NCBI GenBank assembly: GCA_027484425.1
Contig: JAIXSZ010000020.1
Coordinates: 11,988-75,987 of the forward strand
DNA length: 64,000 bases
Reading direction: 5' to 3'
From: Sphingobacteriales bacterium
GTDB taxonomy: Bacteria > Bacteroidota > Bacteroidia > Chitinophagales > Chitinophagaceae
Below the pieces are notes generated by a model. That model was not told the origin of the DNA. It worked only from the letters and a program-made list of their open reading frames with translations, and did not search any database. Each line of letters begins with the position of its first letter. The stretch's first letter is position 1. This document shows positions 2,704-40,021 of this stretch, one piece after another. A program made the translations under genes and the position numbers.

Positions 2704-3231
2704 ATGGAAACAAGAATATTCTATTATTCTAAAGGCAGTAGCACGTTCTATTTTACTGCAATTGTCTTAGTAGCAGGATTGTCACTTTGGGCTCTTCTCT
2801 CTGATGACGTAACAATCGGCAAAAGGATATTTGCAGGGATTTTGCTACCAGGGTCCCTTTACATGGCTTATAGGAATTTCAAAAACTCTATCAAACCAGC
2901 ATATAAGAAAAAACCTGCGCTGATAATGGATGAAAAAGGTGTCTATATTGATGATATGCAGATAACAATATCATGGGATAACATTAGCAGCGTAAAGATG
3001 GATCGAGTTGGGAGACAAGGAGATTGGATATTCTTGTACATAATAAATAAGCACGCCATTAGCTACCAATTAAACAGAGATTTCAGTAGCGACTACATTA
3101 ATATTATTCCTTTTGATTATGCTGATGGTTGGGCTATTTTCGATGCACTTAAAGCATTCTGTGGTAAATACAGGCCTAGTGAAGTACTATTCAGCGGATA
3201 CAAACCCGAAACTTGGCCATCTGAGGGTTGA
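2704..3231 (+). CDS. Hypothetical membrane protein (175 aa), 2 TM plus a PH-like soluble domain
   Basis: Two hydrophobic helices near the N-terminus (FYFTAIVLVAGLSLWALL, IFAGILLPGSLYMAY), followed by a basic linker and a globular C-terminal domain. Confidence 0.45.
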   Translation: METRIFYYSKGSSTFYFTAIVLVAGLSLWALLSDDVTIGKRIFAGILLPGSLYMAYRNFKNSIKPAYKKKPALIMDEKGVYIDDMQITISWDNISSVKMDRVGRQGDWIFLYIINKHAISYQLNRDFSSDYINIIPFDYADGWAIFDALKAFCGKYRPSEVLFSGYKPETWPSEG

Positions 3232-6896: not shown

Positions 6897-7915
6897 AATG
6901 AATAGCATTGATAATCAACTACTTACACCCAAAAACACATGAAATGACCGGAAACAAACCGGAAAAACCAGAAATGAACAATAAACCAAATATGACAACA
7001 AAACCACAGCATCCTGCGACCCGCATCCTGTAAATCCTAAAATTCTGTAAATCCTGATTCAGACAAAAACACCATCATACCGGAAAAAATGAATAGTATT
7101 GATAATCAACGAGTTACACCAAAAAACACATGAAATGACCGGAAACAAACCGGAAAAACTAGAAATGAACAATAAACCAAATATGACGACAAAACGACAG
7201 CACCTACACATATTTAGCAAATCGGCAGCAGGAACACCGCAACAAACTGTCAACTTATTTCGGGACTATTCAAACGGCCCACATCCTGTAAATCTTAAAA
7301 TCCTGTAAATCCTGATTCAGACAAAAACCCACCGGAAAATGCATGCACACCGGAAAAGTGAATAGCATTGATAATCAACTACTTACACCCCAAAACCCAT
7401 GAAAACACCGGCAAATAACCGGCAAAACTGGAAATGAACAATAAACTAAATATGAAAGCAAAACCACAGCATCCTGCGACCCGCATCCTGTAAATCCTAA
7501 AATCCTGTAAATCCTGATTCAGACTAAAACACAATACAAACCGGAAAAATGAATAGTATTGATAATCAACAACTTAAGTACCAAAACACATGAAAACACC
7601 GGAAACAAACCAGAAAAACCTATCAGTAGCCATAGCTATTTAGCGACGGCTACAGAAATGAACAATAAACCAAATATGACGACAAAACGACAGCACCTAC
7701 ACATATTTAGCAAATCGGCAGCAGGAACACCGCAACAAACTATCAACTTATTTCGGGACTATTCAAACGGCCCACATCCTGTAAATCCTGATTCAGACAA
7801 AACCCACCACAAAATGCATGCACACCGGAAAAATGAATAGCATTGATAATCAACAACTTAAGTGCCAAAACACATGAAAACACCGGAAACAAACCGGAAA
7901 TACATATTTGCTTCC
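6897..7915. repeat. Complex tandem repeat array, about 4.4 units. Short (~190 bp) and long (~270-285 bp) unit variants alternate.
   Basis: Units start near 6897, 7089, 7359, 7549 and 7833 (partial). Each begins (A)ATGAATAG(C/T)ATTGATAATCAAC and ends ACCGGAAAA. The short variant carries CCACAGCATCCTGCGACCCGCATCCTG, the long variant CGACAGCACCTACACATATTTAGCAAATCGGCAGCAGGAACACCGCAACAAACT. ORFs 7099..7308 and 7559..7840 are translations of the repeat. Confidence 0.85.
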
Positions 7916-20852: not shown

Positions 20853-21248
<396 letters not shown>

Positions 21249-33161: not shown

Positions 33162-33531
33162 AAGGTGGGTATCCGACAGGGAATGTAAACTTTCGGAGAG
33201 GACAAAATTACAGATATTTTCATATTCCTAATTATAAATCGGTGAATTGACATAGGTTTAAAGAGGTACCCTATGTAGTACCAAGAACACCTACCTACGG
33301 TATATTGTTACAAAAAATAAAACAAAGACTATAGTAACACTCGCTGTAAGAATGTAAACTGAAATCAATTGGGGTATGCGCGTTGTAAAGAAGCAAAAGA
33401 AATAAATAGACTAGTAGCTGCTTAATAAAAGTACGTATAGCACGTTATACATAAAATTGCGCCTCTTAGATTTCTTTTTTAAGAATAAAACTCTTATTTT
33501 TCAAAATATTAACTAAGCTCTTCTGTATTTT

Positions 33532-34644
33532 ATGATAATAGGTGTATTGAAAGAACAAGCCCCGGAAACACGTGTTTCCCTGGTGCCCGAAGTAGTAACT
33601 GCACTGGCAAAACTGAAAGTAAGTATCTGGATAGAAGATGGTGCAGGAGTAGCCGCTTTCTTTAGCAATGACGCATACATAGCGGCAGGTGCAGAAATAA
33701 AAACAGCAGCAGAAATAAATACACAAGCAGATATGGTACTGACCATACAGCCTACCAATGCTGGCAATGCCAAAGATGGTGCGGTGCTGGTGGGTATATA
33801 CCAACCATTATTCAACCATGTACAGATGCAACAATGGGCAGACAAAGGATATACTGTGTTCAGCATGGACACTATACCCCGAACTACACGAGCCCAATCG
33901 ATGGATGTACTAAGCTCACAAGCCAACATAGCTGGCTACAAGGCCGTGCTGCTGGCAGCTTTTAGCTATTGCCGTTACTTCCCCATGTTTATGACTGCTG
34001 CAGGCAGTATACCCCCTGCTAAGGTGCTGATACTAGGTGCTGGTGTGGCAGGGCTACAGGCAATAGCTACCGCTAAGCGACTAGGAGCTGTGGTAGAGGT
34101 GTTTGACACACGCCCCGCGGTGAAGGAAGAAGTTATGAGCCTAGGAGCAAAATTTGTGGAAGTGGAAGGTGCGGCAGATGCATCGAAAGCTGGAGGATAT
34201 GCAGTGGAACAAAGTGAAGATTTTCAGCGGAAGCAACGTGAAAAGATTCACGAACACGCTAAAAAATCGGACATCATTATAACAACAGCCCAGATACCTG
34301 GTCGTAAAGCACCTATACTTATCACAAAGGCGATGATAGAAGACATGCGCCAAGGATCTGTAATCATAGACATTGCTTCTGTGACAGGTGGAAATACCGA
34401 ATTGACACAAGACAACCAAACAGTGATGCACAATGGCGTGGCCATAATAGGTAACTCGGCACTAGCTGCTACTGCATCTTCAGATGCTAGCAAGGTGTAT
34501 AGCAAAAACGTTCTCAACTTCACCAAACTTATACTGAACGCCGAGGGCGGTATCAACCTCAATTTTGAAGAAGATATAGTGAAAGGAACAGCAATAACAT
34601 ACGGAGGAAAGATTGTAAACGAACGTGTGCTGGCATTGAGATAG
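33532..34644 (+). CDS. pntA: NAD(P) transhydrogenase subunit alpha part 1
   Basis: Alanine-dehydrogenase/PNT N-terminal domain and NAD-binding GxGxxG (LILGAGVAGLQAIATAKRLGA). Confidence 0.85.
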   Translation: MIIGVLKEQAPETRVSLVPEVVTALAKLKVSIWIEDGAGVAAFFSNDAYIAAGAEIKTAAEINTQADMVLTIQPTNAGNAKDGAVLVGIYQPLFNHVQMQQWADKGYTVFSMDTIPRTTRAQSMDVLSSQANIAGYKAVLLAAFSYCRYFPMFMTAAGSIPPAKVLILGAGVAGLQAIATAKRLGAVVEVFDTRPAVKEEVMSLGAKFVEVEGAADASKAGGYAVEQSEDFQRKQREKIHEHAKKSDIIITTAQIPGRKAPILITKAMIEDMRQGSVIIDIASVTGGNTELTQDNQTVMHNGVAIIGNSALAATASSDASKVYSKNVLNFTKLILNAEGGINLNFEEDIVKGTAITYGGKIVNERVLALR

Positions 34645-34722
34645 TGGTTGCAATACCAAGTAGTATGCCCTCACTTGAATTAAGAGTAAAAAACAATACT
34701 TAACAATAAACAATTCAATAGA

Positions 34723-35043
34723 ATGGAATCAATAATCAGTTTGTTTACCGACCCTGCCACTTACAGGCTTATGACCATAGTGATACTATCTATATTCTTA
34801 GGAATAGAGGTAATATCGCGTGTGCCATCTGTGTTGCATACACCCCTGATGAGTGGTGCGAATGCCATACATGGTGTGGTAATAATAGGGGCTATAATAG
34901 TAATGGGGCAGGCTCATACAGACGACTACCTAGCACTTGTGCTGGGCTTTCTGGCGGTGATACTAGGTACGCTGAATGTGGTAGGTGGATTTGTGGTGAC
35001 CGACCGCATGCTAGAAATGTTTGGGAAGAAAAAGAAGAAATAA
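34723..35043 (+). CDS. pntAB: NAD(P) transhydrogenase subunit alpha part 2 (membrane)
   Basis: 106 aa with three TM helices and a poly-Lys C-terminus. It sits between pntAA and pntB. Confidence 0.8.
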   Translation: MESIISLFTDPATYRLMTIVILSIFLGIEVISRVPSVLHTPLMSGANAIHGVVIIGAIIVMGQAHTDDYLALVLGFLAVILGTLNVVGGFVVTDRMLEMFGKKKKK

Positions 35044-35108
35044 AAATCCCAATGGGGAAATTCCAAGGGGGAAATTCCAAATACCAAAGGGAAATTCCAA
35101 GGGGAAAC
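35044..35108. repeat. Tandem short palindromic repeats (G)GGGAAATTCCAA, about 4 copies. Left flank of the four-helix-bundle gene.
   Basis: GGGGAAATTCCAAGGGGGAAATTCCAAATACCAAAGGGAAATTCCAAGGGGAAAC. Confidence 0.8.
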
Positions 35109-35137
35109 AGAACAGCATAATGGTTAATTAGAGAGAA

Positions 35138-35473
35138 ATGAATGAGCTTGAATTGAGGTGTTTAAAGTTTGCAACTACTATCAGAGATTTTTGCAGATTA
35201 TTAAAACATGATACTATAAACCTAGTTTACATAAAACAAGTAGTAAGATCCTCATCATCAATAGGTGCTAATTATATCGAAGCAAATGAAAATTTAGGAA
35301 GACAAGATTTATTAATGCATTTGAAGATATCGAGGAAGGAAGCAAAAGAGACACAATATTGGTTGGATCTAATAATCACAGAAGATGAAATAACACGTAT
35401 TGGCTTGAAAAAAGAAGCAGAGGAAATAAGACGGATAATGTCCGCTATAATAAATAAGATACAAGGGCAATAA
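35138..35473 (+). CDS. Four-helix-bundle protein (23S rRNA intervening-sequence protein family, PF05635-like)
   Basis: 111 aa. The IGANYIEA...SRKEAKETQYWLDL signature is typical of this family. The gene is inserted between pntAB and pntB. Confidence 0.7.
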   Translation: MNELELRCLKFATTIRDFCRLLKHDTINLVYIKQVVRSSSSIGANYIEANENLGRQDLLMHLKISRKEAKETQYWLDLIITEDEITRIGLKKEAEEIRRIMSAIINKIQGQ

Positions 35474-35549
35474 ATACATTAAGAAACTTGAAATTGACTT
35501 TATTTACGACGGAAGATGCACATAAGTAGTTGGCATTGGTGTTTAGTAA

Positions 35550-35589
35550 TTCAATTTGGAACTTTGGATTTGGAATTTTGGATTTTTTT
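35550..35589. repeat. Inverted-orientation counterpart of the AATTCCAA repeats. Right flank of the four-helix-bundle gene.
   Basis: TCAATTTGGAACTTTGGATTTGGAATTTTGGATTTTTTT. Its reverse complement contains CCAAAATTCCAAATCCAAAGTTCCAAATTG. Confidence 0.7.
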
Positions 35590-35607
35590 GGAGTTTAATT
35601 ACATCGT

Positions 35608-37023
35608 ATGGAAAACATGATATTACAGTTGATTTATTTGATAGGCTCTATTACTTTCATCATGGGTCTGAAAATGCTATCGCACCCTGATACTGCCAGA
35701 AAAGGAAATCTGCTGGCAGCAGGGGGAATGACATTGGCTATACTTGGCACAATATTTCTGTATAGAGACGGAAATGGAGAAGGGCTACACAACTATGCAT
35801 GGATATTTGCCGCATTGATAATAGGAACCGTAGTAGGAACTGCGGTATCTAAAAAAGTGCAGATGACTGCTATGCCAGAGATGGTGAGCCTATTTAATGG
35901 TATGGGTGGTGCATGTGCCATGCTGATATCGATAATAGAATACAGACACATAATGGCTAACATAGCCACCCATACCCCTGGCACGGGTACTATGATAGTA
36001 GTGGTGCTGGGTATGCTGATAGGTACCGTGTCGTTTGCAGGCAGTATCATAGCCTGGGGTAAGCTAAATGGCAGTATAAAAGACCGTACTATACCAGGAG
36101 GACAGGGTATCAACTTTATATTGTTTGCCGGTATGATAGCACTAGTTGTAATGGTGGCAAGTGGAAAGTTCACAGATATGCCGGCATTGTTTTATGGTAT
36201 ACTGGTGCTTTCTGCCCTGTATGGCATTTTGTTTGTGATGCCTATAGGAGGTGCAGATATGCCGGTGGTGATATCATTGCTGAACTCGTTTACGGGTGTG
36301 GCAGCAGCATTTGGTGGTTTTTTGTATGACAACCCAGTAATGCTAACGGGTGGAATACTAGTAGGATCTGCAGGTACTATCCTTACCATTTTGATGTGTA
36401 AAGCAATGAACCGCTCTTTGAAGAATGTATTGATAGGTTCGTTTGGTGGTGCTAAAACTGGCGGTGGTGCTGCAGGTAGCAAAGAGCAGGGGAACTACAA
36501 AGAAATATCGCTGAATGACACTGCAGTATTGATGGCCTACGCACAAAAAGTAATGATTATACCTGGCTATGGACTAGCCGTTGCACAAGCACAACACACC
36601 TGCCATGAACTAGAGAAAGTGCTGAATGAAAAAGGCGTAGAAGTGCTATATGGTATACACCCAGTAGCCGGGAGGATGCCTGGTCATATGAATGTGCTGC
36701 TTGCTGAGGCCGATGTGCCTTACGAAAAACTATTGGAAATGGAGGATGCAAATGACCAAATGGGCGGTACTAATGTAGTGCTGATACTGGGCGCTAACGA
36801 TGTGGTAAACCCTGCAGCAAAAGAAGACCCTACTAGCCCCATATACGGCATGCCGATACTAGAGGTGGAAAAAGCTGAGCATGTGATAGTAAACAAACGT
36901 AGTATGAAACCAGGCTATGCTGGCATTGAGAACGAATTGTTCTTCCGTCCAAAATCTTCAATGTTGTTTGGAGATGCGAAAAAAGTACTGCAATCGCTGG
37001 TTACAGAACTGAAACAAATGTAA
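35608..37023 (+). CDS. pntB: NAD(P) transhydrogenase subunit beta
   Basis: Multi-TM N-terminal domain, then the C-terminal NADP(H)-binding dIII domain (GYGLAVAQAQH...ILGANDVVNPAA). Confidence 0.85.
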   Translation: MENMILQLIYLIGSITFIMGLKMLSHPDTARKGNLLAAGGMTLAILGTIFLYRDGNGEGLHNYAWIFAALIIGTVVGTAVSKKVQMTAMPEMVSLFNGMGGACAMLISIIEYRHIMANIATHTPGTGTMIVVVLGMLIGTVSFAGSIIAWGKLNGSIKDRTIPGGQGINFILFAGMIALVVMVASGKFTDMPALFYGILVLSALYGILFVMPIGGADMPVVISLLNSFTGVAAAFGGFLYDNPVMLTGGILVGSAGTILTILMCKAMNRSLKNVLIGSFGGAKTGGGAAGSKEQGNYKEISLNDTAVLMAYAQKVMIIPGYGLAVAQAQHTCHELEKVLNEKGVEVLYGIHPVAGRMPGHMNVLLAEADVPYEKLLEMEDANDQMGGTNVVLILGANDVVNPAAKEDPTSPIYGMPILEVEKAEHVIVNKRSMKPGYAGIENELFFRPKSSMLFGDAKKVLQSLVTELKQM

Positions 37024-37906: not shown

Positions 37907-37979
37907 GCCACTTTAGCTCAGATGGTAGAGCAACTGATTTGTAATCAGTAGGTCGCTGGTTCGATTCCGGCAAGTGGCT
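37907..37979 (+). tRNA. tRNA-Thr (anticodon TGT)
   Basis: Acceptor GCCACTT/AAGTGGC, anticodon stem ACTGA/TCAGT with loop TTTGTAA, T-arm GCTGG-TTCGATT-CCGGC. Confidence 0.85.
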
Positions 37980-38051
37980 CTGGTAAGATTTAAACTTTAA
38001 AAGTGATTAAGCAGACAAATGGTTAATCACTTTTTTAAGTTTTGACTGAAT

Positions 38052-38135
38052 GGGCACATTCCACAAGCGGCCAACGTGAGCAGACTGTAAATCTGCCGTC
38101 TTTCGACTTCGGAGGTTCGAATCCTTCTGTGCCCA
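38052..38135 (+). tRNA. tRNA-Tyr (anticodon GTA), long variable arm
   Basis: Acceptor GGGCACA/TGTGCCC, anticodon loop CTGTAAA in CAGACTGTAAATCTG. Near-identical to the canonical bacterial tRNA-Tyr core (GCAGACTGTAAATCTGCCGTC...GGTTCGAATCC). Confidence 0.85.
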
Positions 38136-38216
38136 CATCAACAATGTGAAAGGTTGTAAATTTGAAAATAAGCCCTAGGCTATACGCTCTTTTTATAAGT
38201 TTTCACATTTTTTCAA

Positions 38217-38289
38217 GCGGGAGTAGCTCAGTTGGTAGAGCGACAGCCTTCCAAGCTGTAGGTCGCGGGTTCGAGCCTCGTCTCCCGCT
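38217..38289 (+). tRNA. tRNA-Gly (anticodon TCC)
   Basis: Acceptor GCGGGAG/CTCCCGC, anticodon stem ACAGC/GCTGT with loop CTTCCAA. Confidence 0.85.
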
Positions 38290-38497
38290 CGCTTTTCAAG
38301 TTCTTTTATTTTTTTTGGCTAGTACTATTAGTATATATTGATATTACTAGCCCAGTATGTCAACAGTCATTTTTGGCACATCTATCATGTTCACATAATA
38401 GAAAGTCAAGAATGTAATTTAGCAATACGGCAAACGTACTATTATTATGTTTTGCTAGTATTGGGCTATAATTTGAAATGATAGCAGTTTTATTAAA

Positions 38498-38570
<73 letters not shown>

Positions 38571-38833: not shown

Positions 38834-40021
38834 ATGGCAAAAGAAACCTTTAAGAGGGAGAAACCTCACGTAAACATTGGTACCATCGGCCACGTTGACC
38901 ACGGTAAAACTACACTGACCGCTGCTATCACTACCATTCTGTCTTCTAAAGGATTGGCAGAAAAGAGAGGATACGATGAAATCGATGCAGCTCCAGAAGA
39001 AAAAGAGCGTGGTATCACGATCAATACGGCTCACGTAGAATATGCTACTGCCAACCGTCACTATGCACACGTTGACTGTCCAGGTCACGCTGACTATGTA
39101 AAAAACATGATTACTGGTGCTGCTCAAATGGACGGTGCTATCCTTGTAGTTGCGGCTACAGATGGTCCTATGCCACAAACAAGAGAGCACATCCTTCTTG
39201 CTCGTCAGGTGGGTGTTCCACGTATGGTTATCTTCATGAACAAAGTAGACCTAGTTGATGATGCTGAAATACTGGAGCTTGTAGAAATGGAAATTCGCGA
39301 ATTGCTTTCTAAGAATGGTTATGATGGTGATAACACACCTATCATACAGGGTTCTGCTACAGGTGCACTTGCTGGCGACGCTAAGTGGGTTAAAGCTGTA
39401 GAAGATTTGATGGAAGCTGTAGATTCTTATATACCATTGCCTCCACGTCCTATCGATCAGCCATTCCTTATGTCTGTAGAAGATGTATTCACTATCACTG
39501 GTCGTGGTACTGTTGCTACAGGTCGTATCGAGCGTGGTGTGATTAAAGTAGGTGAAAACGTTGAAATCGTAGGTTTCAATGAATCTCCACTTACTTCTAC
39601 TTGTACTGGTGTTGAGATGTTCAAAAAACTGTTGGATCGTGGTGAGGCTGGTGACAACGCCGGTTTGCTGCTCCGCGGTATTGAGAAAAAAGATATCCGT
39701 CGTGGTATGGTTATCTGCGCTCCTAAAACTATTACTCCGCACACAGACTTCAAAGGTGAAGTTTATGTGTTGAGCAAAGAAGAAGGTGGCCGTCACACTC
39801 CGTTCTTCAACAAATATCGTCCTCAGTTCTATTTCCGTACTACTGACGTAACAGGCGAGTGCATGTTGCCAGAAGGTGTGGAAATGGTAATGCCAGGTGA
39901 TAACGTAAATCTTTCTGTAGTTCTAATCGCTCCTATAGCGATGGATAAAGGTCTGAAATTCGCGATACGTGAAGGTGGCCGTACAGTAGGTGCTGGTCAG
40001 GTAACTGAAATCATCAAATAA
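38834..40021 (+). CDS. tuf: Elongation factor Tu
   Basis: [18 protein letters not shown] and NKVD GTPase motifs, 395 aa. It is preceded by the canonical Thr-Tyr-Gly-Thr tRNA cluster. Confidence 0.95.

Follow-up and report, generated by a model that had tools for sequence, protein, structure and literature searches.

In the 23S rRNA gene of Coxiella, an intervening sequence (IVS) carries an S23p open reading frame (ORF) that is preceded by two to three tandem GACAGAT heptamers, the number of which varies between strains, and the ends of this IVS form a 28-bp inverted-repeat stem within which RNase III cuts (PMC4990558). Further ORF-bearing 23S IVSs are on record for Leptospira, Xanthomonas, Brucella and Haemophilus (cited in PMC4990558), and it is an old idea that elements of this type are, or once were, mobile (PMC4990558). 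The protein family PF05635, to which S23p belongs, also resembles Avd (PMC10053308). Here we describe a similar arrangement in a 64-kb stretch of contig JAIXSZ010000020.1 from a Sphingobacteriales bacterium (this whole stretch is referred to as the window), in which a gene for a 111-aa four-helix-bundle (FHB) protein of the same family lies between pntAB and pntB of the transhydrogenase operon and is flanked by tandem heptamers upstream and by their inverse downstream. As this unit follows the same plan as the Coxiella 23S IVS, but within an mRNA spacer, we consider it to be probably an IVS-type cassette of selfish or commensal character, which is promoter-less and resides in an intergenic spacer within a protein-coding operon.

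The ORF calls gave the order pntAA, pntAB, FHB gene and pntB, all on the plus strand. Pfam assigned the dehydrogenase part of the transhydrogenase alpha subunit to pntAA (33532–34644; AlaDh_PNT_N, E = 5e-33, and AlaDh_PNT_C, E = 7e-64), its part with four transmembrane segments to pntAB (34723–35043; PNTB_4TM, E = 2e-32) and the beta subunit to pntB (35608–37023; PNTB, E = 2e-176), and the FHB gene (35138–35473) was identified by Pfam, NCBIfam and a fold model. The entire pntAB–pntB spacer (35044–35607) is taken up by the element. Its upstream portion of 94 nt begins directly at the pntAB stop and consists of a 5' arm of AAATTCC-type tandem heptamers with G-runs (35044–35108; AAATCCCAATGGGG, then three times GGAAATTCCAA), followed by a non-repeat leader ahead of the FHB start codon (35109–35137), which takes part in the duplex predicted below as far as position 35131. 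The downstream portion of 134 nt comprises a non-repeat spacer after the FHB stop (35474–35549), for which the orthologues show no conservation, and a 3' arm (35550–35600), delimited by repeat scans and duplex prediction and made of degenerate GGAATTT, GGAACTT and GGATTT units that invert those of the 5' arm; from its end to the pntB start codon there are 2–7 nt. An earlier note on this DNA had placed a four-helix-bundle gene between pntAB and pntB, with about four tandem copies of a repeat in front of it and a degenerate inverted version behind. The ORFs, Pfam and TIGR02436 confirm the gene, and the upstream copies resolve into a degenerate one at 35044 and three exact copies of GGAAATTCCAA at 35056, 35070 and 35090, with TTTGGAACTTTGGATTTGGAATTTTGGATTTTTTTGGAG at 35554–35596 as their inverse. 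The description of the repeat as palindromic does not hold, since GGAAATTCC is no true palindrome.

Both arrays have a period of 7 nt (or 14 nt), and the upstream flank received scores of 60–92 in Tandem Repeats Finder. No further exact copy of GGAAATTCCAA occurs anywhere in the 64 kb, and neither tblastn nor motif scans detected another copy of the FHB gene or of the heptamer pattern in this stretch. Between the two flanks, inverted pairs of 25 nt and 16 nt with 76% and 88% complementarity, respectively, were found. Folding of the flanks, which the earlier note had proposed, yielded a long predicted stem: the best spacer–spacer duplex of about 80 nt joins 35051–35131 with 35526–35605 at −50.6 kcal/mol (z = −5.3), with none of 200 dinucleotide shuffles being as stable, and the minimum-free-energy and centroid structures of the full 578-nt fold both close this stem. 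The pntAB stop codon lies 7 nt ahead of the predicted stem base.

The FHB protein exceeded the cut-offs of both family models, with 48.3 bits against Pfam 23S_rRNA_IVP (PF05635; cut-off 33.8) and 64.9 bits against TIGR02436, 'four helix bundle protein' (cut-off 24), and one homologue search returned 2,699 relatives. The closest solved relative is BT_0352 (PDB 2RLD; E = 7.5e-15, 34% identity). An AlphaFold2 monomer model with a mean predicted local distance difference test score (pLDDT) of 95.6 places helices at residues 3–20, 26–49, 55–78 and 84–109, and its TM-scores amount to 0.83 for 2RLD, 0.78 for Xcc0516 (2GSC) and 0.74 for Avd (4DWL), so that we are confident in the modelled four-helix-bundle fold. 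BT_0352 and Xcc0516 are structural-genomics entries of the 'S23 ribosomal' family; 2RLD was deposited with five chains, and the Xanthomonas family protein is a homopentamer (PMC4990558). Comparison with the orthologue of the nearest species (L008; L numbers denote individual comparison loci) gave a ratio of nonsynonymous to synonymous substitution rates (dN/dS) of 0.21, and towards the other orthologues dS is saturated at a dN of merely 0.15–0.3. These substitution patterns indicate that the FHB ORF is under purifying selection.

A metagenome scan with the FHB alignment widened the sample by 80 loci of 44–66% identity, and 72 non-redundant FHB loci were used for the statistics on arm matching. 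Almost all scanned loci carry an array of an A/C-rich unit of about 7 nt upstream of the gene and its reverse complement downstream. The upstream unit differs from locus to locus (AAATTCC, AAATCCG, AAATCCT, AAATAAC, AAATGTC and others), yet the two arms of a given locus agree: an upstream flank has 7.1 8-mers in common with the reverse-complemented downstream flank of the same locus, versus 2.4 with those of other loci, and the true partner arm ranked first in 8 of the 72 loci and among the top three in 22. Loci seeded with FHB contain 230 heptamer arrays per 259 kb, roughly ten times the density of loci chosen by PntB alone (40 per 527 kb), and 123 of these 230 arrays lie within 160 nt of an FHB ORF. 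Judged from these comparisons, the arrays belong to the FHB gene family and not to pnt. Repeats at many loci without linkage to the gene, which the earlier note had named as a finding that would speak against a cassette, were not what the survey returned; the arrays are strongly linked to FHB.

Arrays of this kind accompany about 70 FHB homologues in unrelated operon gaps, and the insertion sites follow a regular pattern. In 59 of 67 loci FHB points in the same direction as the gene upstream of it, and in 59 of 66 it does so relative to the gene downstream; at the 19 measurable loci the outer arm ends lie at a median of 6 nt past the upstream stop and 9 nt ahead of the downstream start. Host gaps identified by Pfam include nuoL/nuoM (L139), ctaB/cox3 (L095, L147), MYG1/obg and a glycosyltransferase pair, and further sites are located upstream of IMPDH and upstream of a multihaem cytochrome (L140). 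Several FHB cassettes, including those of many pnt loci, thus stand within operons of respiratory or energy-coupling membrane complexes, although this sample is small and biased to relatives of the pnt copy, and the pattern may be due to chance. In three loci (L114, L158, L165) the ORFs are 85–90% identical and the arrays and contexts are different, and therefore the arrays change much faster than the ORF; despite this fast change, most loci keep inverted arrays of the same style. As a separate observation, a giant array of about 1.7 kb adjoins FHB upstream on the opposite strand in L109 (approximately 578–2288), with composite units of the AAGTTCCAAATAACAAATAAACTCCAAATCTC type in the heptamer style of the cassette arms, and this array continues downstream of FHB at 3051–3125. 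Because L121 carries two FHB genes (84–425 and 2471–2842) within 2.5 kb, some genomes hold several cassettes close together.

PntB found its best match, with 98% amino-acid identity, in a metagenome-assembled genome (MAG) of Flavipsychrobacter, family Chitinophagaceae. Among roughly 75 Bacteroidota pnt loci, the pntAB–pntB gap mostly measures 10–120 nt and is gene-free, in line with the statement of the earlier note that pntAA-pntAB-pntB is normally contiguous, and a gene-free gap was also observed in relatives with 84%, 82%, 77% and 75% PntB identity (L009, L010, L011 and L038). The gene is hence not family-wide, and where it is present it carries the repeats; a family-wide gene lacking them had been the other finding named as contrary to a cassette. 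Orthologues of 70–94% identity, L005–L008 among them, are located in the pntAB–pntB gap of Taibaiella lutea, a second Flavipsychrobacter MAG and additional contigs, all with AAATTCC-type units upstream and GGAATTT-type units downstream. In a neighbour-joining tree the orthologous FHB genes group into a single clade, and their divergence parallels that of PntB. From this synteny, the single clade and the co-divergence with PntB, the window copy is judged to be old and vertically inherited within the Flavipsychrobacter/Taibaiella clade. The same gap holds an FHB of 31% identity with different units in L073 and truncated or frameshifted copies in L030, L039 and L043. In addition, ORF-less hairpins of short tandem units are predicted in the pntAB–pntB gap of other Chitinophagaceae, namely at 2510–2655 in L022 (z = −5.2), 2895–2995 in L015 (z = −5.1) and 2870–3000 in L023 (z = −4.2); the units of L022, L023 and L015 are AATTGGGAAA/TTTCCCAATT, AAATTCCAAAT/ATTTGGAATTT and ATGATGTATGAT/ATCATACATCAT, respectively, and the hairpin sequences are unrelated. 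They may be what is left of former cassettes, or palindromic elements in their own right, and by analogy they are reminiscent of ORF-less IVSs.

An allele set was assembled from the contigs that an exact look-up of the window PntAB protein returned. Among these contigs with identical PntAB, FHB is intact in L168, L169 and L171–L174, it bears a one-base frameshift in L170, and L175–L177 possess an FHB-less gap of 67 nt. These empty alleles retain two units of the 5' arm, GGGGAAAATTCCAAATCCCAA, together with the distal spacer end, but have lost the leader, the ORF and all of the 3' arm. In a tree of 1.5 kb of flanking pnt sequence they branch from within the filled alleles (they share 97% nucleotide identity with L171), and the sister clade and the outgroups are filled as well; therefore, the empty alleles are losses, that is, by this comparison, deletion derivatives and not pre-insertion sites. 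A recent insertion at the window locus was accordingly considered and rejected, given this nesting and the retained part of the 5' arm. The FHB-less gaps of L009 (1368–1419) and L175 (1489–1555) both show an A-rich stretch resembling the 5' arm directly ahead of the pntB start (AAATCCTAAATCGAAAAATATAAATTCCAAAA in L009), in both the 3' arm is absent, and no structure is predicted for them or for the other empty alleles. Deletions thus seem to take out the ORF and the 3' arm together. The number of upstream units ranges from 4 in the window to as many as 13 in L008. The occurrence of frameshifted and deleted alleles despite identical PntAB supports the view that the cassette is dispensable.

Movement over longer times is indicated by two contigs, L144 and L145, whose cassettes are 97.6% identical, with a sharp onset of the identity at the outer boundary of the 5' array; the upstream DNA of the two is unrelated, with an AMMECR1 gene in one and a different gene in the other. 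Inverse arrays at both ends amount to terminal inverted repeats, and no target-site duplication was seen in the pnt alleles or in L144/L145. No transposase, integrase or reverse transcriptase was found within about 11 kb of FHB, the reverse-transcriptase scan covering ORFs of at least 150 aa between 22.6 and 46.6 kb of the window. The comparative evidence thus partly supports a cassette that is mobile over evolutionary time. The suggestion of the earlier note of a minimal mobile or selfish cassette stands insofar as the element forms a single unit, is foreign to pnt and dispensable, and near-identical cassettes elsewhere have unrelated upstream flanks; it has to be amended in that the insertion is not recent here, the polymorphism reflects loss and not gain, and no mobility enzyme accompanies it within that distance.

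In the explanation we favour, a cassette in which a PF05635 four-helix-bundle ORF stands between a heptamer array on its 5' side and the inverse array on its 3' side would be transcribed by read-through of the pnt operon. The two arrays would pair in the transcript to form a long imperfect stem, from which the ORF would be looped out and whose base would bring the pntAB stop and the pntB start within about 10–15 nt. By analogy with rRNA IVSs, this stem would be a likely substrate of RNase III, and a cut would divide the operon RNA and set free an FHB message of its own; instead of this, or besides it, the stem may preserve the translational coupling of pntB. Entry into the pntAB/pntB gap would have preceded the split of Flavipsychrobacter and Taibaiella, with vertical descent since then, and the arrays would grow and shrink by slippage, the cassette at times becoming frameshifted or deleted. 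No terminator-like site was detected on the plus strand inside the cassette by a terminator scan, and a promoter scan of the locus returned sigma-70-like matches at chance level. The TAnnTTTG box of Bacteroidetes is absent across 33200–35620, including the region upstream of pntAA, which renders this test uninformative.

Several observations weigh against this explanation. Mismatches between the arms show no excess of G·U over A·C (108 versus 127, p = 0.24), and the sense duplex is more stable than the antisense duplex in 43 of 72 loci, a marginal result (p = 0.07). Given the lack of a clear RNA-specific signal in the wobble and strand tests, the symmetry of the arms could be kept at the DNA level. 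Duplex energy as such discriminates poorly, as A-rich and U-rich flanks pair even when shuffled. The stem is imperfect, and it reaches significance in the orthologues L006, L007 and L008, in contrast to L005 and L088; in L008 the 5' array is far longer than the 3' array, so that a large part of it cannot pair, and the arrays of the orthologous clade are not alignable column by column. An Rfam search of the locus, the whole window and 20 related loci yielded tRNAs only, with no family matching the flanks, and RNA pairing and cleavage are proposed here by analogy with rRNA IVSs. Furthermore, the intact and constrained FHB ORF, unlike that of Coxiella, suggests that the protein has some role.

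Part of these points would suit a non-autonomous transposable element acting at the DNA level, in which the arrays would be terminal inverted repeats or hairpin ends read by an enzyme encoded elsewhere, FHB would be cargo or helper and the RNA stem a by-product. Inverted symmetry in the arms with no RNA-specific wobble bias, the presence of the cassette in many unrelated contexts, the sharp onset of the L144/L145 homology and the frequent ending of contigs inside arrays, as multi-copy repeats would cause, are consistent with such an element. However, neither a mobility gene in the surveyed neighbourhood nor a target-site duplication was seen, the 64-kb window contains a single copy, and arrays that outpace the ORF and differ between genes of 85–90% identity would be unusual for recognition sequences; in addition, the strong co-orientation with the host operon would not be needed. 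We regard this alternative, which is compatible with part of the IVS-type explanation, as rather unlikely. The purifying selection on the ORF and its long vertical retention could instead point to a domesticated host gene, whose product would act as an RNA- or DNA-binding regulator on its own arrays to the benefit of the operon, for example by tuning the PntA:PntB ratio. The fold shared with Avd, a component of the solved DGR (diversity-generating retroelement) reverse-transcriptase ribonucleoprotein (8UBE), and the several respiratory or energy-related host operons (pnt, nuoL/nuoM, ctaB/cox3) would fit this idea. Against it, most pnt operons lack FHB, the gene has been lost or frameshifted among contigs with identical PntAB, and other contexts (glycosyltransferases, obg, IMPDH) lie outside energy metabolism, which leaves domestication an improbable account.

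The earlier note had also considered a regulatory structure that controls pntB expression, and a pnt-specific cis-regulatory hairpin into which an unrelated gene was inserted by chance would indeed account for a 3' arm that abuts the pntB start codon and for the ORF-less hairpins in the same gap of other Chitinophagaceae. Yet those hairpins are unrelated in sequence, neither the empty alleles nor most pnt operons have one, and dozens of further operons contain FHB genes with arrays of this style on both sides. Since the arrays accompany the gene to its other host operons, a pnt-specific regulator is very improbable, and this linkage across contexts largely refutes it; an effect of the stem on pntB translation is possible all the same. 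That FHB might be the Avd of a DGR, or a remnant thereof, is suggested by the common family and fold (TM-score to 4DWL as given above), but with no reverse transcriptase or other retroelement gene within about 11 kb and with pnt genes as the neighbours in every orthologous locus, we give this proposal hardly any credence. Searches with PADLOC and PHROGs, which address defence and phage readings, returned no match.

The locus bears on two long-standing questions, the origin of rRNA intervening sequences and the tolerance of insertions within operons. PF05635/TIGR02436 is a very large orphan family whose functional anchors are only Avd in retroelements and the ORFs in rRNA IVSs, and a gene with inverted arrays that is co-oriented, spacer-filling and strain-variable in housekeeping operons links these dispersed findings as instances of a single type of element. 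Among the pnt alleles, the naturally occurring filled, frameshifted and empty ones offer comparisons that are close to isogenic, and a named species, Taibaiella lutea, has the cassette. It is tempting, if decidedly speculative, to go further and regard PF05635 genes with inverted heptamer arrays as a widespread, undescribed class of operon-embedded 'messenger-RNA intervening sequences', of which the rRNA IVS would be a special case surviving in rRNA genes, and whose Avd-like protein might aid spread or upkeep, for example by binding the arrays or, in the manner of Avd in retroelements, by recruiting a polymerase or a reverse transcriptase. If true, this class would represent a mobile element that lacks a conventional transposase.

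Some other features of the window were recorded alongside. Beyond the pnt operon comes a 195-aa ORF that has no Pfam match, and then a cluster of four tRNA genes (37907–38569) with the elongation factor Tu gene (38834–40021) behind it. Other short tandem arrays are present at a distance from the cassette: ATCCTGTAA occurs in three arrays of about 3.7 copies each (7025–7056, 7283–7314 and 7485–7516) at a spacing of 200–260 nt, and two AAAACACCRG arrays lie nearby (7583–7617 and 7867–7900). Behind the gene for tRNA-Ala(GGC) at 20853–20926, a tract reaching to 21244 repeats the 3' part of this gene (T-arm and acceptor end) in about three tandem copies of 105 nt, together with a GC-rich hairpin, CTTTCCCGAAAGCATTCGGGAAAG, and a T-run; the complete tRNA is the first copy only. 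The tract could be the scar of repeated integration or excision at the tRNA end, or the terminator region may have been duplicated in tandem.

Among previously described systems, other short repeats resemble parts of the cassette. Miniature inverted-repeat elements as well as the palindromes known as repetitive extragenic palindromes (REP) and bacterial interspersed mosaic elements (BIME) are short and intergenic, possess inverted symmetry, occur within operons and vary between strains. The cassette likewise is a short intergenic element of inverted symmetry in an operon that varies between strains, but it encodes a conserved protein, its arms consist of heptamer arrays of microsatellite character instead of a fixed sequence, and neither a target-site duplication nor a partner transposase was identified for it. 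Tandem TAACTGA heptamer repeats in Beggiatoaceae, Cyanobacteria and Bacteroidetes, which overlap in part with the phyla of the cassette, are intergenic and often stand directly upstream of start codons (PMC4679880). In contrast to the cassette arms, they are mostly direct and do not form inverted pairs around a gene, and that paper makes no mention of four-helix-bundle or IVS proteins. Full-text literature searches, which leave most subscription journals uncovered, returned nothing that links the PF05635 family to heptamer arrays outside rRNA genes. With Avd, the DGR accessory variability determinant (PDB 4DWL, 8UBE), the FHB protein has the four-helix-bundle fold and the Pfam-level family in common, but the identity in structural alignment is only about 13% and the locus, unlike that of Avd, has no reverse transcriptase or other retroelement gene nearby; general repeat scans, none of them aimed at template and variable repeats, showed no such repeats near FHB.

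The agreement with the 23S IVSs extends further. Here as there, terminal inverted repeats form a stem, at this locus a predicted one, whose loop contains a PF05635 (S23p) ORF; the element is part of a host transcript in sense orientation, it has no mobility gene of its own, and the ORF decays in some lineages. As in the Coxiella IVS, tandem heptamers stand directly 5' of the ORF in variable number (4–13 among the relatives of the window), with AAATTCC here in place of GACAGAT. Excision by RNase III has been demonstrated for Coxiella and would, for the window cassette, follow from the likeness in plan. The ORF is intact and constrained here, in contrast to the decaying and probably untranslated ORF of Coxiella. 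The host is likewise a different one, the spacer of the pntAB–pntB mRNA instead of helix 9, 25 or 45 of 23S rRNA; the window contains no rRNA match, and within the sample scanned with Rfam no FHB was located inside an rRNA gene. Overall, the element misses the location that defines an rRNA IVS and shares its other testable features.

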